64,000 bases of DNA. Origin: an uncultured Actinomycetota bacterium. Lineage in GTDB: Bacteria > Actinomycetota > Actinomycetes > Propionibacteriales > Nocardioidaceae. This document shows, in pieces, positions 3,045 to 63,507 of the stretch. The stretch lies in contig CAWJLX010000006.1 in the NCBI GenBank assembly GCA_963843815.1, forward strand, positions 79,834 through 143,833, written 5' to 3'. The notes beneath the pieces were generated by a model that did not search any database, was not told where the DNA came from, and was given only the letters and a program-made list of their open reading frames with translations. Both the position numbers and the translations under genes were made by a program. Each line of letters opens with the position of its first letter. Positions within the stretch are counted from its first letter, which is position 1.

Positions 3045-4015
3045 CGCACAGGATGCGGGTCGGGCAGCACGGGTCCCGCCGCTGCGGCAGGCCTTCCGAG
3101 GCCCGCGACCGCACCCAGCACGAGCACGATCCCGACGACCGCCACCGGTCCGAGCGACTCACCCAGGACGACCGCGGCGACCACGGCGGCGGTCACGGGC
3201 TCGACCAGGCTGGCCGTGACGGCCGTGCTGGGTGCGACCACCCGCAGCCCGGAGTAGAGCAGGACGTAGGCCAGCGCCATCGTGAGCGCCCCGAGGTAGA
3301 GCAGCCACCCGATCGCCGCGGGGTCCGCCGTGACCCGCGGGCCCCCGACGAGGGCCAGGCACGGCAGCAGCACCACGGCGCCGACGAGCGTCATCCCGCT
3401 GGTCAGCACCAGCGGTGACGCGTCCCGGCTGATGGAGCCGCCGGCCGCGGTCGTCAGGGCGTACGTCGTGCCCGACGCGATCGCGAGCAGCACCCCGGCG
3501 AGAGGAGCCGGGCCGGTGGAGGACTCGTGGCCGGCCACGCTGACGAGCAGCAGGCCCGTGAGCGCCGCCACGAGCACGGCGACGCGTGAGGGCGCGGGCG
3601 CCCGGCGGTGTCGTACGGACTCCGCCACCGTCAGCAGCACGGGTGCCAGGCCGAGGCTGACGACGGTCGAGACGGCGACGCCGACCTGGGTGACCGAGAC
3701 GAAGTAGAAGCCCTGGTAGGTCGCGGTCCCGACGCCGACGGCGAGCAGCTGACGTGGCCGCGACCGGGCCAGGGCGACCAGGTCCCCGACCTGGCGCAGG
3801 GCCAGGAGCGTGACCAGCAGCACCACGGCGGCGATCGTCATCCGCCATGCGCTGATGGTCACCGGGGACATCGCCTCGTGCTCCCGGATCAGCTGCACGG
3901 CCAGCCCGCCGGTGCCCCACAGCACGCTGGCGACGCCGACCTCGACCAGGCCGCGCACGTGGGACCGGTGGCCGGGTGCTCGAGACCCGGAGGAGGCGGG
4001 CGTCTCCGGAGTCAT
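3041..4015 (-). CDS. EamA/DMT-family transporter
   Basis: 324 aa with about 10 hydrophobic helices in two repeated EamA-like halves. Confidence 0.75.
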   Translation of the reverse strand: MTPETPASSGSRAPGHRSHVRGLVEVGVASVLWGTGGLAVQLIREHEAMSPVTISAWRMTIAAVVLLVTLLALRQVGDLVALARSRPRQLLAVGVGTATYQGFYFVSVTQVGVAVSTVVSLGLAPVLLTVAESVRHRRAPAPSRVAVLVAALTGLLLVSVAGHESSTGPAPLAGVLLAIASGTTYALTTAAGGSISRDASPLVLTSGMTLVGAVVLLPCLALVGGPRVTADPAAIGWLLYLGALTMALAYVLLYSGLRVVAPSTAVTASLVEPVTAAVVAAVVLGESLGPVAVVGIVLVLGAVAGLGRPAAAAGPVLPDPHPVR

Positions 4016-4085
4016 GTGCCGGAGTCTGCCAGCCGGCGACCGACGCCCACCTGCGGGTTCGCCCGCTGTCTCCTAGGCTCTGCCC

Positions 4086-5165
4086 ATGCCAGCTCCCTCA
4101 TCGTCCGGCGGCCGGGTCCTCGTCACCGGCGGCGCCGGCTTCATCGGTACGACGCTGGCACGCGAGCTCGCGGACTCCGCCGAGCAGTGGGTCGTCCTCG
4201 ACAACCTGCACCCGCAGGTGCATCCCGGTTCCCAGCCTCCGCTCGACCTGCCCGACTCCGTGGACCTGCGCGTCGGTGACGTCACCAGCGCCGAGGACCT
4301 GGACGCGGTCGTCGTCGACCTGCGCCCGGACACCGTCGTGCACCTCGCTGCCGAGACCGGCACCGCGCAGTCGCTGTCGGAGAGCACCCGCCACGGCATG
4401 GTCAATGTCGTGGGCACCACCCAGCTGCTCGACGCCCTCACGCGCGCCGGTCACGTCCCCAGCCACTTCGTGCTGACCAGCTCGCGAGCGGTCTACGGCG
4501 AGGGCGTGTGGCGCAACGCCGATGGCACCACCTTCCAGCCGGGCCTGCGCACGCACGCGCAGCTCGAGGCCGGCGCGTGGGACCACGGCACCGGCGCCGA
4601 GCACGTCCCCAACTCGGTGGCGGGCACCCACCCCCACCCGATCAACGTCTACGGCGCCACCAAGCTCGCGCAGGAGCAGATCCTCGCCGCCTGGACCGGC
4701 TCGCACGACACGAAGCTGTCGACCCTGCGCCTGCAGAACGTCTACGGCCCGCGCCAGTCGCTGTCGAACCCCTACACCGGGATCGTCTCCCTCTTCTCGC
4801 GGCTGGCCCGCGAGGGCAAGTCGATCCCGCTCTACGAGGACGGCGACATCACGCGCGACTTCGTCCACATCGACGACGTCGTCAGCGCGCTGGTCGCCGC
4901 GATCGCCGACCCGCCGGCCGACCACATCCGCACCGTCGACATCGGCAGCGGTGTGCGCACCACGATCGGAGACCTGGCCCGCGAGGTCGCGCGCTACCAC
5001 TCCGCGCCCGAGCCGCACATCACGGGCCAGTACCGCGACGGCGACGTCCGGCATGCCTCGTGCACGGTCGAGGCCACGGTGGCGGAGCTGGACTGGAAGC
5101 CCCGCGTGAGCCTGCGCGACGGCGTCGCCGGCCTCCAGGAATGGATCGCGACCCAGCTGGACTGA
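4086..5165 (+). CDS. NAD-dependent epimerase/dehydratase (extended SDR)
   Basis: Contains the VLVTGGAGFIGT Rossmann motif and the YGATKLAQE YxxxK catalytic motif. Confidence 0.85.
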   Translation: MPAPSSSGGRVLVTGGAGFIGTTLARELADSAEQWVVLDNLHPQVHPGSQPPLDLPDSVDLRVGDVTSAEDLDAVVVDLRPDTVVHLAAETGTAQSLSESTRHGMVNVVGTTQLLDALTRAGHVPSHFVLTSSRAVYGEGVWRNADGTTFQPGLRTHAQLEAGAWDHGTGAEHVPNSVAGTHPHPINVYGATKLAQEQILAAWTGSHDTKLSTLRLQNVYGPRQSLSNPYTGIVSLFSRLAREGKSIPLYEDGDITRDFVHIDDVVSALVAAIADPPADHIRTVDIGSGVRTTIGDLAREVARYHSAPEPHITGQYRDGDVRHASCTVEATVAELDWKPRVSLRDGVAGLQEWIATQLD

Positions 5166-58424: not shown

Positions 58425-59657
58425 TCAGACCCCGACGTTGTGCTGGAAGTGGGCGCGGTTGGCGCGGTAGGACCGGTAGGCGTTGCGCCACTGGACGCGG
58501 CCGATGGACGGCTCGCTCGGGTCGAAACGCGACTGGTCCCACGGCTCGAAGTAGCCGATCCTGGGATTGCCGTCGGTGTTCTGGTCGAAGCCGCGCCCGA
58601 CCTGGAAGTGACCGCTGGCGTCGTCGTCGAGGTAGGGGTAGTACTGCTTGAGCAGCACCGGGTGGAGGACGACGGGCGCTTCGTAGTCGTGGATGTGGCG
58701 CATCATCAGGCGGTACCACTGCTTGAAGGTGAAGTCGCTGATGTCGAGCACGACGTAGGGGCCGGCGTGGGCGGCGTCGTCGTAGTCGGTCTGGTTGTTG
58801 ATCACGCGCACCATGTCGGTGATGGCCGTGCCGGCCGAGGTGGTGCGCAGGCGGCGCGCCCAGTAGGACTGGTTCTTCCGCTTCTGGCTCGAGCCCCATC
58901 CGATGGCCTGCATGGCCGTCGGGCCGCACCAGTAGGTCGTGTTCTGGCTGCGGACCTGCGACCGGTCCATGATGGCGAACTTCTCGGGATACTTCTGGCC
59001 GAAGCCACGCGCGTCGACCTCGGTGCCGGCGGTGATCTCGGGGTGGCGCTCGGCGAAGTCGGCCGGCAGCTCGACGCCCTGGACCTCGTGGCGCAGCATC
59101 CACACCTTGCCGACGGACCGCGCGGCCATGGTGAGCTCGGCGCGCTCGGACTCGGTACGGGCGGCGGCGCCGCGGTTGTCGGCGCGGGCCAGCAGGCCGT
59201 CGGCGTCGAGGTCGCCGGTGCGCTCGCGGCCCGGCTTCGGGCGCGGTGCCATCCGGGCGGCGAGGGTCGCGCGGCTCTGGTTGGTCCAGCCGAAGCCGAG
59301 GCAGTAGCGCTGGCCGTCGAAGGTCGCGCACCGGACGGCGGCTCGCGCCATCGCCGTACGCCCTCGGGCCCGGTCGAGGCCGGCGCCCTCGGCGAGCACG
59401 CGGTCGATCTCGGCCTGCATCGCGGGCGTGACCCGGCCGCGGCCGCTGGCGTTGCCCGGCGCCTCGGCGGAGTCCGCAGACGGGGCGATCCGGCCCTGCC
59501 CGTCGTCGCCGTCAGGCAGGAACGGGACCGCGCCCAGGGTCAGGGCGAGGGCCGCCGCGGCGATGGTCGCGGGGTGGCGCCACAGGGGCCGGGAGGAGTC
59601 CTCGCCGGCGATCCGGGAGGCGATGCGAGTGGTGAGGAAGCGGGGAAGGGCTGGCAT
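58425..59657 (-). CDS. secreted papain-like (C39-like) cysteine peptidase-domain protein
   Basis: Has an N-terminal signal or TM segment. It contains a YWCGPTAMQAIGW putative nucleophile motif, with SGHFQV about 110 aa later. Confidence 0.5.
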   Translation of the reverse strand: MPALPRFLTTRIASRIAGEDSSRPLWRHPATIAAAALALTLGAVPFLPDGDDGQGRIAPSADSAEAPGNASGRGRVTPAMQAEIDRVLAEGAGLDRARGRTAMARAAVRCATFDGQRYCLGFGWTNQSRATLAARMAPRPKPGRERTGDLDADGLLARADNRGAAARTESERAELTMAARSVGKVWMLRHEVQGVELPADFAERHPEITAGTEVDARGFGQKYPEKFAIMDRSQVRSQNTTYWCGPTAMQAIGWGSSQKRKNQSYWARRLRTTSAGTAITDMVRVINNQTDYDDAAHAGPYVVLDISDFTFKQWYRLMMRHIHDYEAPVVLHPVLLKQYYPYLDDDASGHFQVGRGFDQNTDGNPRIGYFEPWDQSRFDPSEPSIGRVQWRNAYRSYRANRAHFQHNVGV

Positions 59658-59770
59658 GGGGAAGAACCTCGATCCGAGAAGACGGTCGCCTCACTGTCCC
59701 CTCTGGTCCCAGAAGGCGCAAGTTTCCCACTGACAACAGTGCAGTCCGCCACCCCAGCCTGAACGAGAGA

Positions 59771-59829
59771 TAGTCCGCATCAATTGGCTCCCCGAAACGA
59801 TTGCTCAAGGAGTTCTTTGATGCGGACTA
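59771..59829. repeat. 59-nt hairpin element, arms TAGTCCGCATCAA / TTGATGCGGACTA (copy 1)
   Basis: Perfect 13-bp arms with a 33-nt loop. It lies 14 nt downstream (minus strand) of the tRNA-derived array. Confidence 0.8.
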
Positions 59830-59843
59830 CCGAGAGGAAGACG

Positions 59844-60163
59844 TGGAGCGGATGACGAGATTCGAACTCGCGACATCGACGGTGGGCAGAGTGTCGCGCT
59901 CTGCGCGCCTACCGGGAGGAAGTTGGAGCGGATGACGAGATTCGAACTCGCGACATCGACGGTGGGCAGAGTGTCGCGCTCTGCGTGCCTACCGGGAGGG
60001 AGTTGGAGCGGATGACGAGATTCGAGCTCGCGACATCGACGGTGGGCAGAGTGTCGCGCTCTGCGTGCCTACCGGGAGGGAGTTGGAGCGGATGACGAGA
60101 TTCGAACTCGCGACATCGACGGTGGGCAGAGTGTCGCGCTCTGCGCGCCTAAGCGGAGGAAGT
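59844..60163 (-). repeat. four tandem 80-bp tRNA-Gly-derived pseudo-units
   Basis: Units start at 59844, 59924, 60004 and 60084. Each contains the 37-nt tRNA 3' portion TGGAGCGGATGACGAGATTCGAACTCGCGACATCGAC (plus strand), and the units differ from each other by 1-4 SNPs. Confidence 0.9.
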
Positions 60164-60239
60164 TGGAGCGGATGACGAGATTCGAACTCGCGACATCGAC
60201 CTTGGGAAGGTCGCGCTCTACCAACTGAGCTACATCCGC
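60164..60239 (-). tRNA. tRNA-Gly (anticodon CCC)
   Basis: The manual cloverleaf is GCGGATG-TA-GCTC-AGTTGGTA-GAGC-G-CGACC-TTCCCAA-GGTCG-ATGTC-GCGAG-TTCGAAT-CTCGT-CATCCGC-T-CCA, 76 nt. Confidence 0.95.
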
Positions 60240-60268
60240 AGTGCCGTCCGGGAACGGCGGGCCGAATG

Positions 60269-61030
60269 CTACCTGACGCTCGAGAGACCCGGTCGCTTCG
60301 GGGAGACGGAGTCGCCCGAGGAGCGTCCGGTGACGCGGCGGTGCACCCACGGCACCAGGAACTCGCGAGTCCACTGGACGTTGGCGGCCCACTGCTGGCG
60401 GCGCCCCAGCAGCGGGGGCGGCTGCACCGTGACCGGCGGCTGTGCGTGCTCGACCCCGAGGGCCTCGAGGACGGCGTGCGCCATGTGCGTGTGTCCGTCG
60501 GTGTTGAGGTGCATCCGGTCGGCGTCCATGACGCCTGCGATCTCGATGTCGCGCATCCGCCACATGTCGACGATCGTCGCGTCGTGCCGGTCGGCGATCT
60601 CGCGGACCCACTCGTTGAAGATCGCCATCCGCCCGCGCACGGGTCCGTAGATCCCCTTGCCGCCCGGGTCGAAGATCGTGAACATCACCACGTGGGCGCC
60701 GGTGGCAGCCAGGCGCGCGATGGCGTCGTCGTACGACCTGGCGAGGGCGTCGAGGTCGACCCGCGGCCGGAGCACGTCGTTGCCTCCGCCGTGGATGGTG
60801 ATGAGGTCCGGCTCGAGCGCGACGGCGGCACCCACCTGCTCGGCGACGATGGGGCCGAGCTTGCGGCCGCGGACGGCGAGGTTGGCGTAGCCGAAGTCGT
60901 CGGACTGTTCAGCGAGCACCTCGGCGACGCGGTCGGCCCAGCCGCGCAGGCCGTTGGGCCGCGCGGGGTCGGGGTCGCCGACGCCCTCGGTGAAGGAGTC
61001 GCCCAGGGCGACGTAGCGGTGGAAGGTCAC
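60269..61030 (-). CDS. SGNH/GDSL-family hydrolase
   Basis: Contains block I ALGDSFTEG, block III HGGGNDV and block V DRMHLN. The GTG at 61030 is preferred, though the ATG at 61102 is possible. Confidence 0.8.
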   Translation of the reverse strand: MTFHRYVALGDSFTEGVGDPDPARPNGLRGWADRVAEVLAEQSDDFGYANLAVRGRKLGPIVAEQVGAAVALEPDLITIHGGGNDVLRPRVDLDALARSYDDAIARLAATGAHVVMFTIFDPGGKGIYGPVRGRMAIFNEWVREIADRHDATIVDMWRMRDIEIAGVMDADRMHLNTDGHTHMAHAVLEALGVEHAQPPVTVQPPPLLGRRQQWAANVQWTREFLVPWVHRRVTGRSSGDSVSPKRPGLSSVR

Positions 61031-61118
61031 CGAACCATTGTGGCGACCGGATCCCCAGAGCCGAAAACGGCCGTGGAGGCGTGGCCCCGGAGCCGGTGAC
61101 ATGCCTTAGGTTGGCGCC

Positions 61119-61694
61119 GTGCTGCTCTCTGATCGCGACATCGCCCGTGAGATCGACCTGGGCCGGATCGCCCTCGAGCCGTGGGACCCGCAGATGATGC
61201 AACCCTCGAGCGTCGACGTACGCCTCGACCGGTTCTTCCGGGTCTTCGAGAACCACCGCTATCCCCACATCGACCCGGCGGCCGACCAGTCCGAGCTGAC
61301 CCGCGAGGTCGAGCCGGAGGGCGACGAGCCGTTCATCCTGCATCCGGGCGAGTTCGTCCTGGGCTCGACGTACGAGGCCGTGTCCCTGCCCGACGACGTG
61401 GCCGCGCGCGTCGAGGGCAAGTCCTCCCTGGGTCGGCTCGGGCTGCTGACCCACGCGACCGCCGGCTTCGTCGACCCCGGCTTCTCCGGTCACGTGACCC
61501 TGGAGCTCGCCAACGTCGCGACGCTGCCGATCAAGCTCTACCCCGGCATGAAGATCGGCCAGTTCTGCTTCTTCCGGCTCTCCTCGCCCAGCGAGCACCC
61601 GTACGGCTCGGAGAAGTACGGCTCGCGCTACCAGGGCCAACGCGGCCCCACGCCGAGCCGGTCGTTCCAGAACTTCCACCGCACGTCGATCTGA
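61119..61694 (+). CDS. dcd: dCTP deaminase
   Basis: Contains MLLSDRDI...PSSVDVRLD...[15 protein letters not shown]...YQGQRGPT. Confidence 0.95.
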
Positions 61695-63448: not shown

Positions 63449-63507
63449 TAGTCCGCATCAAAAAGCTGGTCGTGAACGTGGTTTCACGAGCTTTCTGATG
63501 CGGACTA
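63449..63507. repeat. 59-nt hairpin element, arms TAGTCCGCATCA / TGATGCGGACTA (copy 2)
   Basis: It has the same 12-bp arms as 59771-59829 but an unrelated loop that itself pairs (TCGTGAA/TTCACGA). It lies 20 nt downstream of the stop at 63528. Confidence 0.8.

Follow-up and report, generated by a model that had tools for sequence, protein, structure and literature searches.

A 64,000-nucleotide stretch of contig CAWJLX010000006.1 from an uncultured, Nocardioides-type soil member of the Nocardioidaceae (the window hereafter) contains a tRNA-Gly(CCC) gene that is followed directly by a tandem array of truncated and remodelled copies of itself. We interpret the array as an old variable-number tandem repeat of a truncated tRNA-Gly(CCC) pseudogene that is probably transcribed as the 3′ trailer of the tRNA, and assign this reading as a whole a probability of roughly 0.55. 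Its structural and evolutionary component is put forward with high confidence. The functional component, in which the array would act in cis within the tRNA 3′ trailer, in termination or end processing, and would give rise to ~80-nt by-products, draws on analogy and is offered tentatively. Judged from comparison of genomes, the array is old in the Nocardioides lineage and not private to this genome, and its units are neither tRNAs nor integration sites.

ARAGORN identifies a single tRNA gene in the window, which the Rfam tRNA model matches with 71.1 bits (60167–60239) and whose cloverleaf has a minimum free energy of −30 kcal/mol (z = −3.3). Tandem Repeats Finder reports an array at 59827–60219 with a period of 80, 4.9 copies, 94% matches and a score of 663. 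Together these programs bear out the initial annotation, made from the letters alone, of an intact tRNA-Gly(CCC) followed by four 80-bp units (Table 1). All four units are exactly 80 nt long and lie on the same strand as the tRNA. Each is composed, from 5′ to 3′, of a 15-nt spacer (ACTTCCTCCCGGTAG), the hexamer GCGCGC, AGAGCGCGAC, which equals tRNA positions 21–30, ACTCTGCCCACC, which replaces the anticodon-loop region, and 37 nt that correspond to tRNA positions 40–76 and include the CCA; the 5′ acceptor strand and the 5′ half of the D arm are missing. The 17 nt past the last unit resemble the spacer and constitute a partial fifth copy. Six columns vary among the units (60160, 60154–60152, 60146, 60106 and their equivalents). 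Differences between units are small, as first described, although the pairwise range is 1–6 positions rather than the 1–4 substitutions given then, and the identity of the 37-nt part to the tRNA, claimed for every unit, holds for three of them, with unit 2 matching at 36 of 37 positions (60026). The copy number is that of the assembly; because units 2 and 3 are so nearly the same, a short-read assembly could mis-count them. A profile search with the unit found no copy elsewhere in the window, and no master copy in the window or the related loci. Two sources fit the unit-specific loop about equally well in alignment: the real anticodon loop, if 3 nt are inserted, and tRNA positions 15–24 read as their reverse complement (CTCTACCAAC), with a score of 7–8 of 10 compared to ~4 for shuffles.

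Table 1. Coordinates of the tRNA-Gly(CCC) gene, its array and the adjoining elements in the window.
Feature	Position	Strand	Basis
Intact tRNA-Gly(CCC), CCA encoded	60164..60239	-	ARAGORN, Rfam, cloverleaf energy
Unit 1, 80 nt, spacer variant CCGCTTAG	60084..60163	-	Tandem Repeats Finder and sequence
Unit 2, 80 nt, T-loop T-to-C at 60026	60004..60083	-	Tandem Repeats Finder and sequence
Unit 3, 80 nt, one base apart from unit 2	59924..60003	-	Tandem Repeats Finder and sequence
Unit 4, 80 nt	59844..59923	-	Sequence; module conservation across species
Unit 4, spacer	59909..59923		
Unit 4, GCGCGC	59903..59908		
Unit 4, AGAGCGCGAC	59893..59902		
Unit 4, ACTCTGCCCACC	59881..59892		
Unit 4, 37-nt tRNA 3′ part with CCA	59844..59880		
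Partial fifth copy, spacer only, CGTCTTCCTCTCGGTAG	59827..59843	-	Tandem Repeats Finder and sequence
-10-like hexamer TAGCAT, putative part of the tRNA promoter	60266..60271	-	Overlaps SGNH hydrolase stop codon
Leader hairpin GCCGT-N6-ACGGC	60243..60258	-	From sequence; between -10-like hexamer and tRNA
59-nt palindromic element TAGTCCGCATCAA-N33-TTGATGCGGACTA	59771..59829	.	Bounds array

Several other identities for the units were considered and rejected. No unit is called as a cryptic tRNA by ARAGORN, or by the Rfam tRNA model at E up to 10, and ARAGORN likewise calls a single tRNA at each of 27 related loci (see below); the earlier description of the units as derived from a tRNA without being tRNAs thus stands. 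A clustered regularly interspaced short palindromic repeat (CRISPR) array is excluded, as the stretches between the tRNA-like parts are identical from unit to unit and not unique spacers. A peptide similar to Tpr of Escherichia coli is excluded by the 80-nt period, which is not a multiple of 3, and by the periods in relatives, which fall in all frames. Each unit does contain a 27-codon antisense and a 15-codon sense open reading frame, neither of which is conserved across relatives.

The array recurs at the orthologous locus of related genomes (loci in relatives are designated by L numbers). We scanned genomes for two copies of the T-loop/acceptor 3′ motif spaced 45–75 nt apart, where the second copy had to match a 24-nt pattern exactly at 20 specified tRNA bases. 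Matches were obtained in 27 species, all Nocardioides or Nocardioidaceae, and in every one the truncated copies lie directly after the intact tRNA-Gly(CCC). Most of these species have one unit, whereas L004 has up to five and L020 at least nine; repeat periods are 73–131 nt, and copies are found 73–154 nt apart. N. mangrovicus and N. zhouii also bear the array. A metagenome scan with the unit-specific pattern yielded eight contigs, in seven of which the unit adjoins the tRNA; the eighth starts inside an array, and its tRNA is not visible. The unit-specific sequence AGCGCGAC-R-CTCTGCC after tRNA-Gly(CCC) is shared by 27 species and 8 metagenome contigs. The surrounding gene order is dcd, SGNH hydrolase, tRNA, array, secreted protein, lipoprotein and a DUF2461 gene, with a Peptidase_C39_2-like gene on the array side ahead of the last, and the identity of neighbouring proteins across loci falls to ~45–55%. 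The near identity of the units in the window could be accounted for by a private, recent slippage event or an artefact in the assembly of this contig, but the same structure occurs in 35 independent assemblies, including one complete chromosome (Nocardioides sp. T5, three units), and array-bearing assemblies include long contigs of 0.1–3.6 Mb. Such an origin is scarcely credible, and the comparative data rule it out as a general explanation, the exact copy number here aside. The recent amplification proposed initially thus applies locally, to the nearly identical units of the window, but the unit itself is old.

The array is also frequently missing. A sample of eight relatives was drawn via homologues of the SGNH hydrolase, blind to the repeat. 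N. hwasunensis and N. exalbidus each carry one unit and one partial copy, five relatives have no array (N. okcheonensis, N. xinjiangensis, N. houyundeii, N. oleivorans and N. cavernae), and a Marmoricola genome has no tRNA at the locus. A profile search detected no unit remnants in species without units. Because it is absent from many species, the array is dispensable; read from these genomes, it is old and widespread, yet has been repeatedly lost. It is not absent from all close relatives, the outcome that the initial annotation had associated with a neutral slippage event.

The way the array varies within and between genomes suggests how it is maintained. Units are nearly identical within a genome (0–6 differences per unit), whereas spacers differ between genomes at ~0.51 per site. 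On these sequence comparisons, the combination of uniformity within and divergence between genomes is concerted evolution by continuing unequal exchange, and the array has the properties of a variable-number tandem repeat that evolves in concert, its copy number ranging from 0 to at least 9. In N. exalbidus (L041), a derived T-loop variant, TTCGAGT, is common to the tRNA and its unit, which is direct evidence of concerted evolution. Terminal units carry substitutions or deletions at L003, L006, L015, L017, L019, L032 and L039; the first unit is intact across loci, though the scan demanded intactness. At L020, some distal units hold junctions with real anticodon-loop bases (CAAGGTCGATG). Such junctions could only form beside the tRNA, which suggests that this array grew at its proximal end. 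L020 is the longest array observed (194–1000, at least nine units) and derives from a metagenome bin, in which assembly errors are possible. The junction insertions in its distal units vary: CGTCGAT is duplicated, or TCGTCG is present, or AAG, CTCAAG or CAAG occurs with a second GTCGATG.

These patterns can be accommodated in a simple scheme. An ancestral duplication would have taken in approximately tRNA positions 21–76 and the first bases of the trailer, and the anticodon-loop region of the copy would have been remodelled to R-CTCTGCC-N(3–5). Unequal exchange or replication slippage across the 37–60-nt stretches that are identical in tRNA and copy would then add and remove units, producing uniform units within each genome, species-specific spacers and the observed span of copy numbers. 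The same exchanges would renew the proximal units from the selected tRNA, giving concerted evolution, and distal units beyond the reach of renewal would decay. Unequal recombination or slippage, already named in the initial annotation, thus remains the likely mechanism of copy-number change. Its proposed starting point, a GGTAG microhomology between D loop and trailer, does not: units in relatives exist without GGTAG, which in the window represents the first bases of a 59-nt palindromic element after the array. The short motif AGCGCGAC, present in the tRNA, in every unit and in several terminal partial copies, could have seeded the duplication. In most species the spacer is repeated after the last unit, and in several the partial copy extends through AGCGCGAC, as would be expected of a tandem duplication seeded by a short repeat and not of an attL/attR layout. 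A mechanism for microhomology-mediated tandem duplication is described in bioRxiv 10.64898/2026.02.28.708716.

The array shares its head-to-tail arrangement, partial terminal copy and variable copy number with products of such duplication and with variable-number tandem repeats in general. In contrast to an ordinary repeat of this kind, it is anchored at one end in a strongly selected gene that serves as a permanent template, which leads to the polarity of intact proximal and decayed distal units, and its unit-specific part is unusually conserved.

Duplication of a tRNA 3′ part is typical of integrative elements, examples being mycobacteriophage L5, at a tRNA-Gly, and actinomycete integrative elements. 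The array could on this ground be taken for a set of integration scars, or for the stack of attB-like sites suggested in the initial annotation, targeted by tyrosine-integrase elements at the tRNA-Gly 3′ part. As in the tRNA fragments at attL and attR, a tRNA 3′ part is duplicated from near the anticodon stem with the acceptor 3′ strand included; the block of identity opens with the 3′ strand of the anticodon stem, where att sites commonly have a boundary, and two inversions end at the array (L007 and L015). Unlike the situation at such elements, however, no integrase, island or attP accompanies the array, and the spacer repeats tandemly. No integrase was found near the tRNA or array in the window, nor was any integrase-like gene or island seen beside any of ~45 loci, at which downstream open reading frames were inspected and the same housekeeping neighbours recur. 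The 80 bp between copies are too short for an element. Tandem duplication, unlike an attL/attR arrangement, leaves a spacer that matches the trailer behind the last unit, and this is what most species show. The 37-nt and 23-nt cores have zero exact matches in viral contigs, the BLAST matches in phages and plasmids are ordinary tRNA-Gly genes, and none of the eight metagenome contigs carries a free-standing copy. The failure to find an attP counterpart in viral contigs, phage records and plasmids is a weak negative, as few Nocardioides elements are in the databases. A paper on actinobacterial integrative elements mentions neither Nocardioides nor tRNA-Gly. An origin by integration is consequently very improbable.

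Conservation of the unit was quantified from an alignment of the last 64 nt of the first unit in 37 assemblies. The unit is seen to consist of a fast-evolving spacer upstream of a conserved module of ~58 nt, composed of AGCGCGAC, R, CTCTGCC, 3–5 variable nt and the 37-nt tRNA 3′ part with CCA. Mean pairwise differences per site are 0.51 for the 7 nt upstream of AGCGCGAC, 0.04 for AGCGCGAC itself, 0.51 for R (a two-state A/G site), 0.11 for CTCTGCC, 0.32 for the 4–5 nt that follow it and 0.01 for the 37-nt tRNA part. By way of comparison, four-fold degenerate sites of the adjacent dcd show a mean difference of 0.35 between relatives and the window. The segment AGCGCGAC-R-CTCTGCC thus changes at a rate ~three to four times below that of neighbouring synonymous sites. 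The conservation of the unit-specific part is no artefact of the search, because the scan that gave the 27 genome loci selected on the T arm alone.

The spacer after the CCA is species-specific, and it retains a relation to the unit-specific part. The two parts fold better together than they do once the spacer has been shuffled; over 28 species the mean z is −1.03, and in 7 of them p is below 0.05. The hairpin takes the form GCAGAGCG-CGA-CGCTCTGC in close relatives of the window and GTCGCGCT-N3-AGCGCGAC in more distant species. Within this distant group, the 5′ strand of the hairpin can be the exact reverse complement of tRNA positions 22–33, as in the first-unit spacer of L008 (AAGGTCGCGCTC); L035 and L023 are similar. 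The L008 sequence would pair with the real tRNA body over 12 bp, compared to 8–9 bp with AGCGCGAC of its own unit, and may be the trace of a fold-back copying event or reflect pairing between trailer and tRNA.

The array is probably transcribed with the tRNA as its 3′ trailer, since both are on one strand, a conserved -10-like element precedes them, and no terminator separates tRNA and array. The hexamer TAGCAT is situated 27–32 nt upstream of the tRNA in the window, and in 41 of 45 related loci a hexamer of the form TANNNT, in most cases GGTAGCAT or GGTACTAT, precedes the tRNA 5′ end by ~31 nt and is followed by a small leader hairpin. In the same 41 loci the element can also be written as a conserved extended -10-like motif (GGTAGCAT, GGTACTAT or GGTAACAT). 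A strict consensus scan of 59400–60500 found no sigma-70 promoter and no intrinsic terminator. The leader hairpin between hexamer and tRNA has a conserved CCGTCC-N4-GGACGG form in close relatives. Within a trailer transcript, the GC-rich hairpin and C-rich stretch of each unit could serve termination or 3′-end processing, and tRNA-processing enzymes acting on the T-arm/3′-acceptor/CCA end could release ~80-nt by-product RNAs. On the transcript strand, the C/G ratio of spacer and unit-specific part is 1.46.

Several points weigh against the reading of the array as an ancient repeat with a role in the trailer. The C/G ratio is only modestly above that of an upstream control (1.22), and transcription, processing and a role as terminator are all inferred, in part by analogy. 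Single units fold no more stably than shuffles (z = −0.2 to −0.7); the stems are nearly invariant, making covariation uninformative. One possible compensatory pair, in L016, is anecdotal only. The criteria of the genome scan bias both the integrity of the first unit and the prevalence of the array. The slow evolution of CTCTGCC is not accounted for by exchange with the tRNA; this main unexplained observation is a hint that keeps a functional RNA under consideration. Finally, loss in many species fits a neutral by-product equally well.

In that case the array would be an ancient pseudogene repeat without any role, a self-perpetuating product of recombination that drifts in copy number until it is lost. 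Its absence from five of the eight relatives sampled without bias, the decay of distal units and the failure of units to fold better than shuffles would all be expected of such a repeat, and the perfect 37-nt part needs no selection, since concerted evolution with the tRNA accounts for it. CTCTGCC, in contrast, has no donor in the tRNA and yet differs at only 0.11 per site, when four-fold sites differ at 0.35 and the adjacent spacer at 0.51. Moreover, spacers tend to remain complementary to the unit-specific part, and a ratchet of easy, precise deletion should have cleared more lineages. Taken together, these considerations make a wholly neutral repeat somewhat unlikely.

The conserved segment invites two stronger functional proposals. 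In the first, which we consider unlikely, the units would be a selected RNA module and the array a tRNA-templated, polarised generator of mimics of the tRNA 3′ end. Such a mimic would comprise a hairpin, a T-arm/acceptor minihelix and CCA, with spacers that keep re-evolving complementarity to the unit-specific segment; it would control termination, processing and dosage of the single tRNA-Gly(CCC), or else titrate a factor active on tRNA 3′ ends. In the second, ~80-nt RNAs carrying the T arm, 3′ acceptor strand and CCA would act in trans as decoys or sponges for a tRNA-3′-end enzyme or toxin, or as small regulators comparable to rtT or 3′ETS-leuZ. Conservation of the unit-specific segment agrees with this proposal, rtT RNA from tyrT of E. 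coli provides a precedent, and an acceptor/T minihelix mimic can be drawn in which GUCGAUG:CAUCCGC is paired at 6 of 7 positions and is followed by UCCA. The same pairing is found inside the real tRNA, however, and is possibly a coincidence; the units have no match in Rfam, mutations in the T loop and T stem are tolerated (unit 2 of the window, L018, L024 and L039), and many species have no array. Trans-acting RNAs are therefore quite improbable.

The closest analogue of the array is the set of distal repeats of E. coli tyrT/tyrV, which is an analogue and not a homologue. In E. coli K-12, analysed with the same tools, a 178-bp unit recurs 3.1 times behind tyrV, and every copy ends in AATCCTTCCCCCACCACCA, the tRNA-Tyr 3′ end with CCA; the region is annotated with rttR and tpr. 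In both systems, tandem units lie directly 3′ of a tRNA on the same strand, begin with the tRNA trailer, end with a tRNA 3′-terminal segment that includes CCA, and close with a partial last copy. The distal region of tyrT/tyrV is a site of Rho-dependent termination. According to PMC3318445, which cites Bosl and Kersten (1991), one E. coli repeat unit encodes rtT RNA, and this RNA has been linked to processing of the tyrT transcript and to the stringent response (bioRxiv 10.1101/2024.07.17.603846). Release of processed trailer RNAs from the Nocardioides array is plausible by this analogy. An Rfam search of 59000–61000 at E up to 10 returned the tRNA only, with no match to rtT RNA. The two systems are unrelated in sequence and differ in tRNA and phylum, and the Nocardioides unit is shorter (73–131 nt) but carries more of the tRNA, with 37 nt, a further 9–10 nt and a remodelled anticodon region compared to 19 nt in E. 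coli. In addition, the Nocardioides array encodes no Tpr-like peptide, varies in copy number from 0 to at least 9 across the genus and has a conserved unit-specific segment. A second point of comparison is 3′ETS-leuZ, a single, non-repeated tRNA trailer RNA with a defined sponge function, which likewise comes from the 3′ external transcribed spacer of a tRNA transcript, an origin that is only proposed for the array. No earlier description of such an array in Nocardioides or Actinobacteria was found in the literature searched, coverage of which is incomplete.

The window has a GC content of ~72%. On the upstream side of the tRNA lies the SGNH/GDSL hydrolase gene (60269–61033 or 61102, minus strand), with dcd beyond it (61119–61694, plus strand). 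The other flank contains the gene for a 410-aa secreted protein (58425–59657, minus strand), a lipoprotein-like gene and the DUF2461 gene; labels of these neighbours draw in part on Pfam labels of orthologues. The array is bounded by the 59-nt palindromic element, whose first bases (TAG) coincide with the end of the partial fifth copy. Two copies of the element are present in the window (the second at 63449–63507), compared to none in 100 shuffles, and it is also found in five related loci (L012, L036–L039), for instance at L012 5204–5262, L036 2248–2306 and 3916–3974, and L039 4004–4062. Copies are intergenic, with conserved ends (TAGTCCGCATCAA and TTGATGCGGACTA) and a variable 33-nt interior, and from its sequence the element looks like a dispersed repeat of the repetitive extragenic palindromic (REP) kind or a paired operator.

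Inspection of the related loci yielded a number of further observations. At L007, where the genes for the SGNH hydrolase and the secreted protein are missing, the tRNA and array are inverted in place; at L015, the block of dcd, SGNH hydrolase, tRNA and array is inverted relative to its neighbours. These are two independent rearrangements with a breakpoint at the distal end of the array. A hairpin-rich element of ~75 nt (GAGTCACCGGATATCCGGTGACC...CTTGTCGGCCCAGATC.AGGCCGACAA...GGGTGCA) follows tRNA-Gly in N. oleivorans (L047 3391–3465) and occurs twice in N. exalbidus (L041 ~3890–3965 and 4070–4145), where it flanks the pseudo-unit. Possibly this is a small element that is mobile or has been duplicated. 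The tRNA gene encodes the full CCA in most relatives, and an incomplete one (...CCGCTCGC, ...CCGCTCCG) at the tRNA 3′ end in L030, at L047 3370–3380 and at L048 3383–3392.

Spread over a genus of Actinomycetota, the array provides a counterpart to the tyrT repeats of E. coli that is independent of them and much larger, and an apparently undescribed example of a tRNA-anchored repeat that evolves in concert genus-wide. As a repeat with its anchor in a strongly selected gene, it offers a natural system for following concerted evolution, polar decay and repeated loss directly in genome sequences. For annotation, it cautions that such arrays should not be mistaken for att sites, tRNA pseudogene clusters or CRISPR-like arrays, and that their copy counts are possibly wrong in short-read assemblies. 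The comparison also draws attention to a short non-coding stretch that is apparently constrained. Should the units be transcribed and released, they would represent a new class of tRNA-like RNAs derived from trailers in high-GC Gram-positive bacteria.

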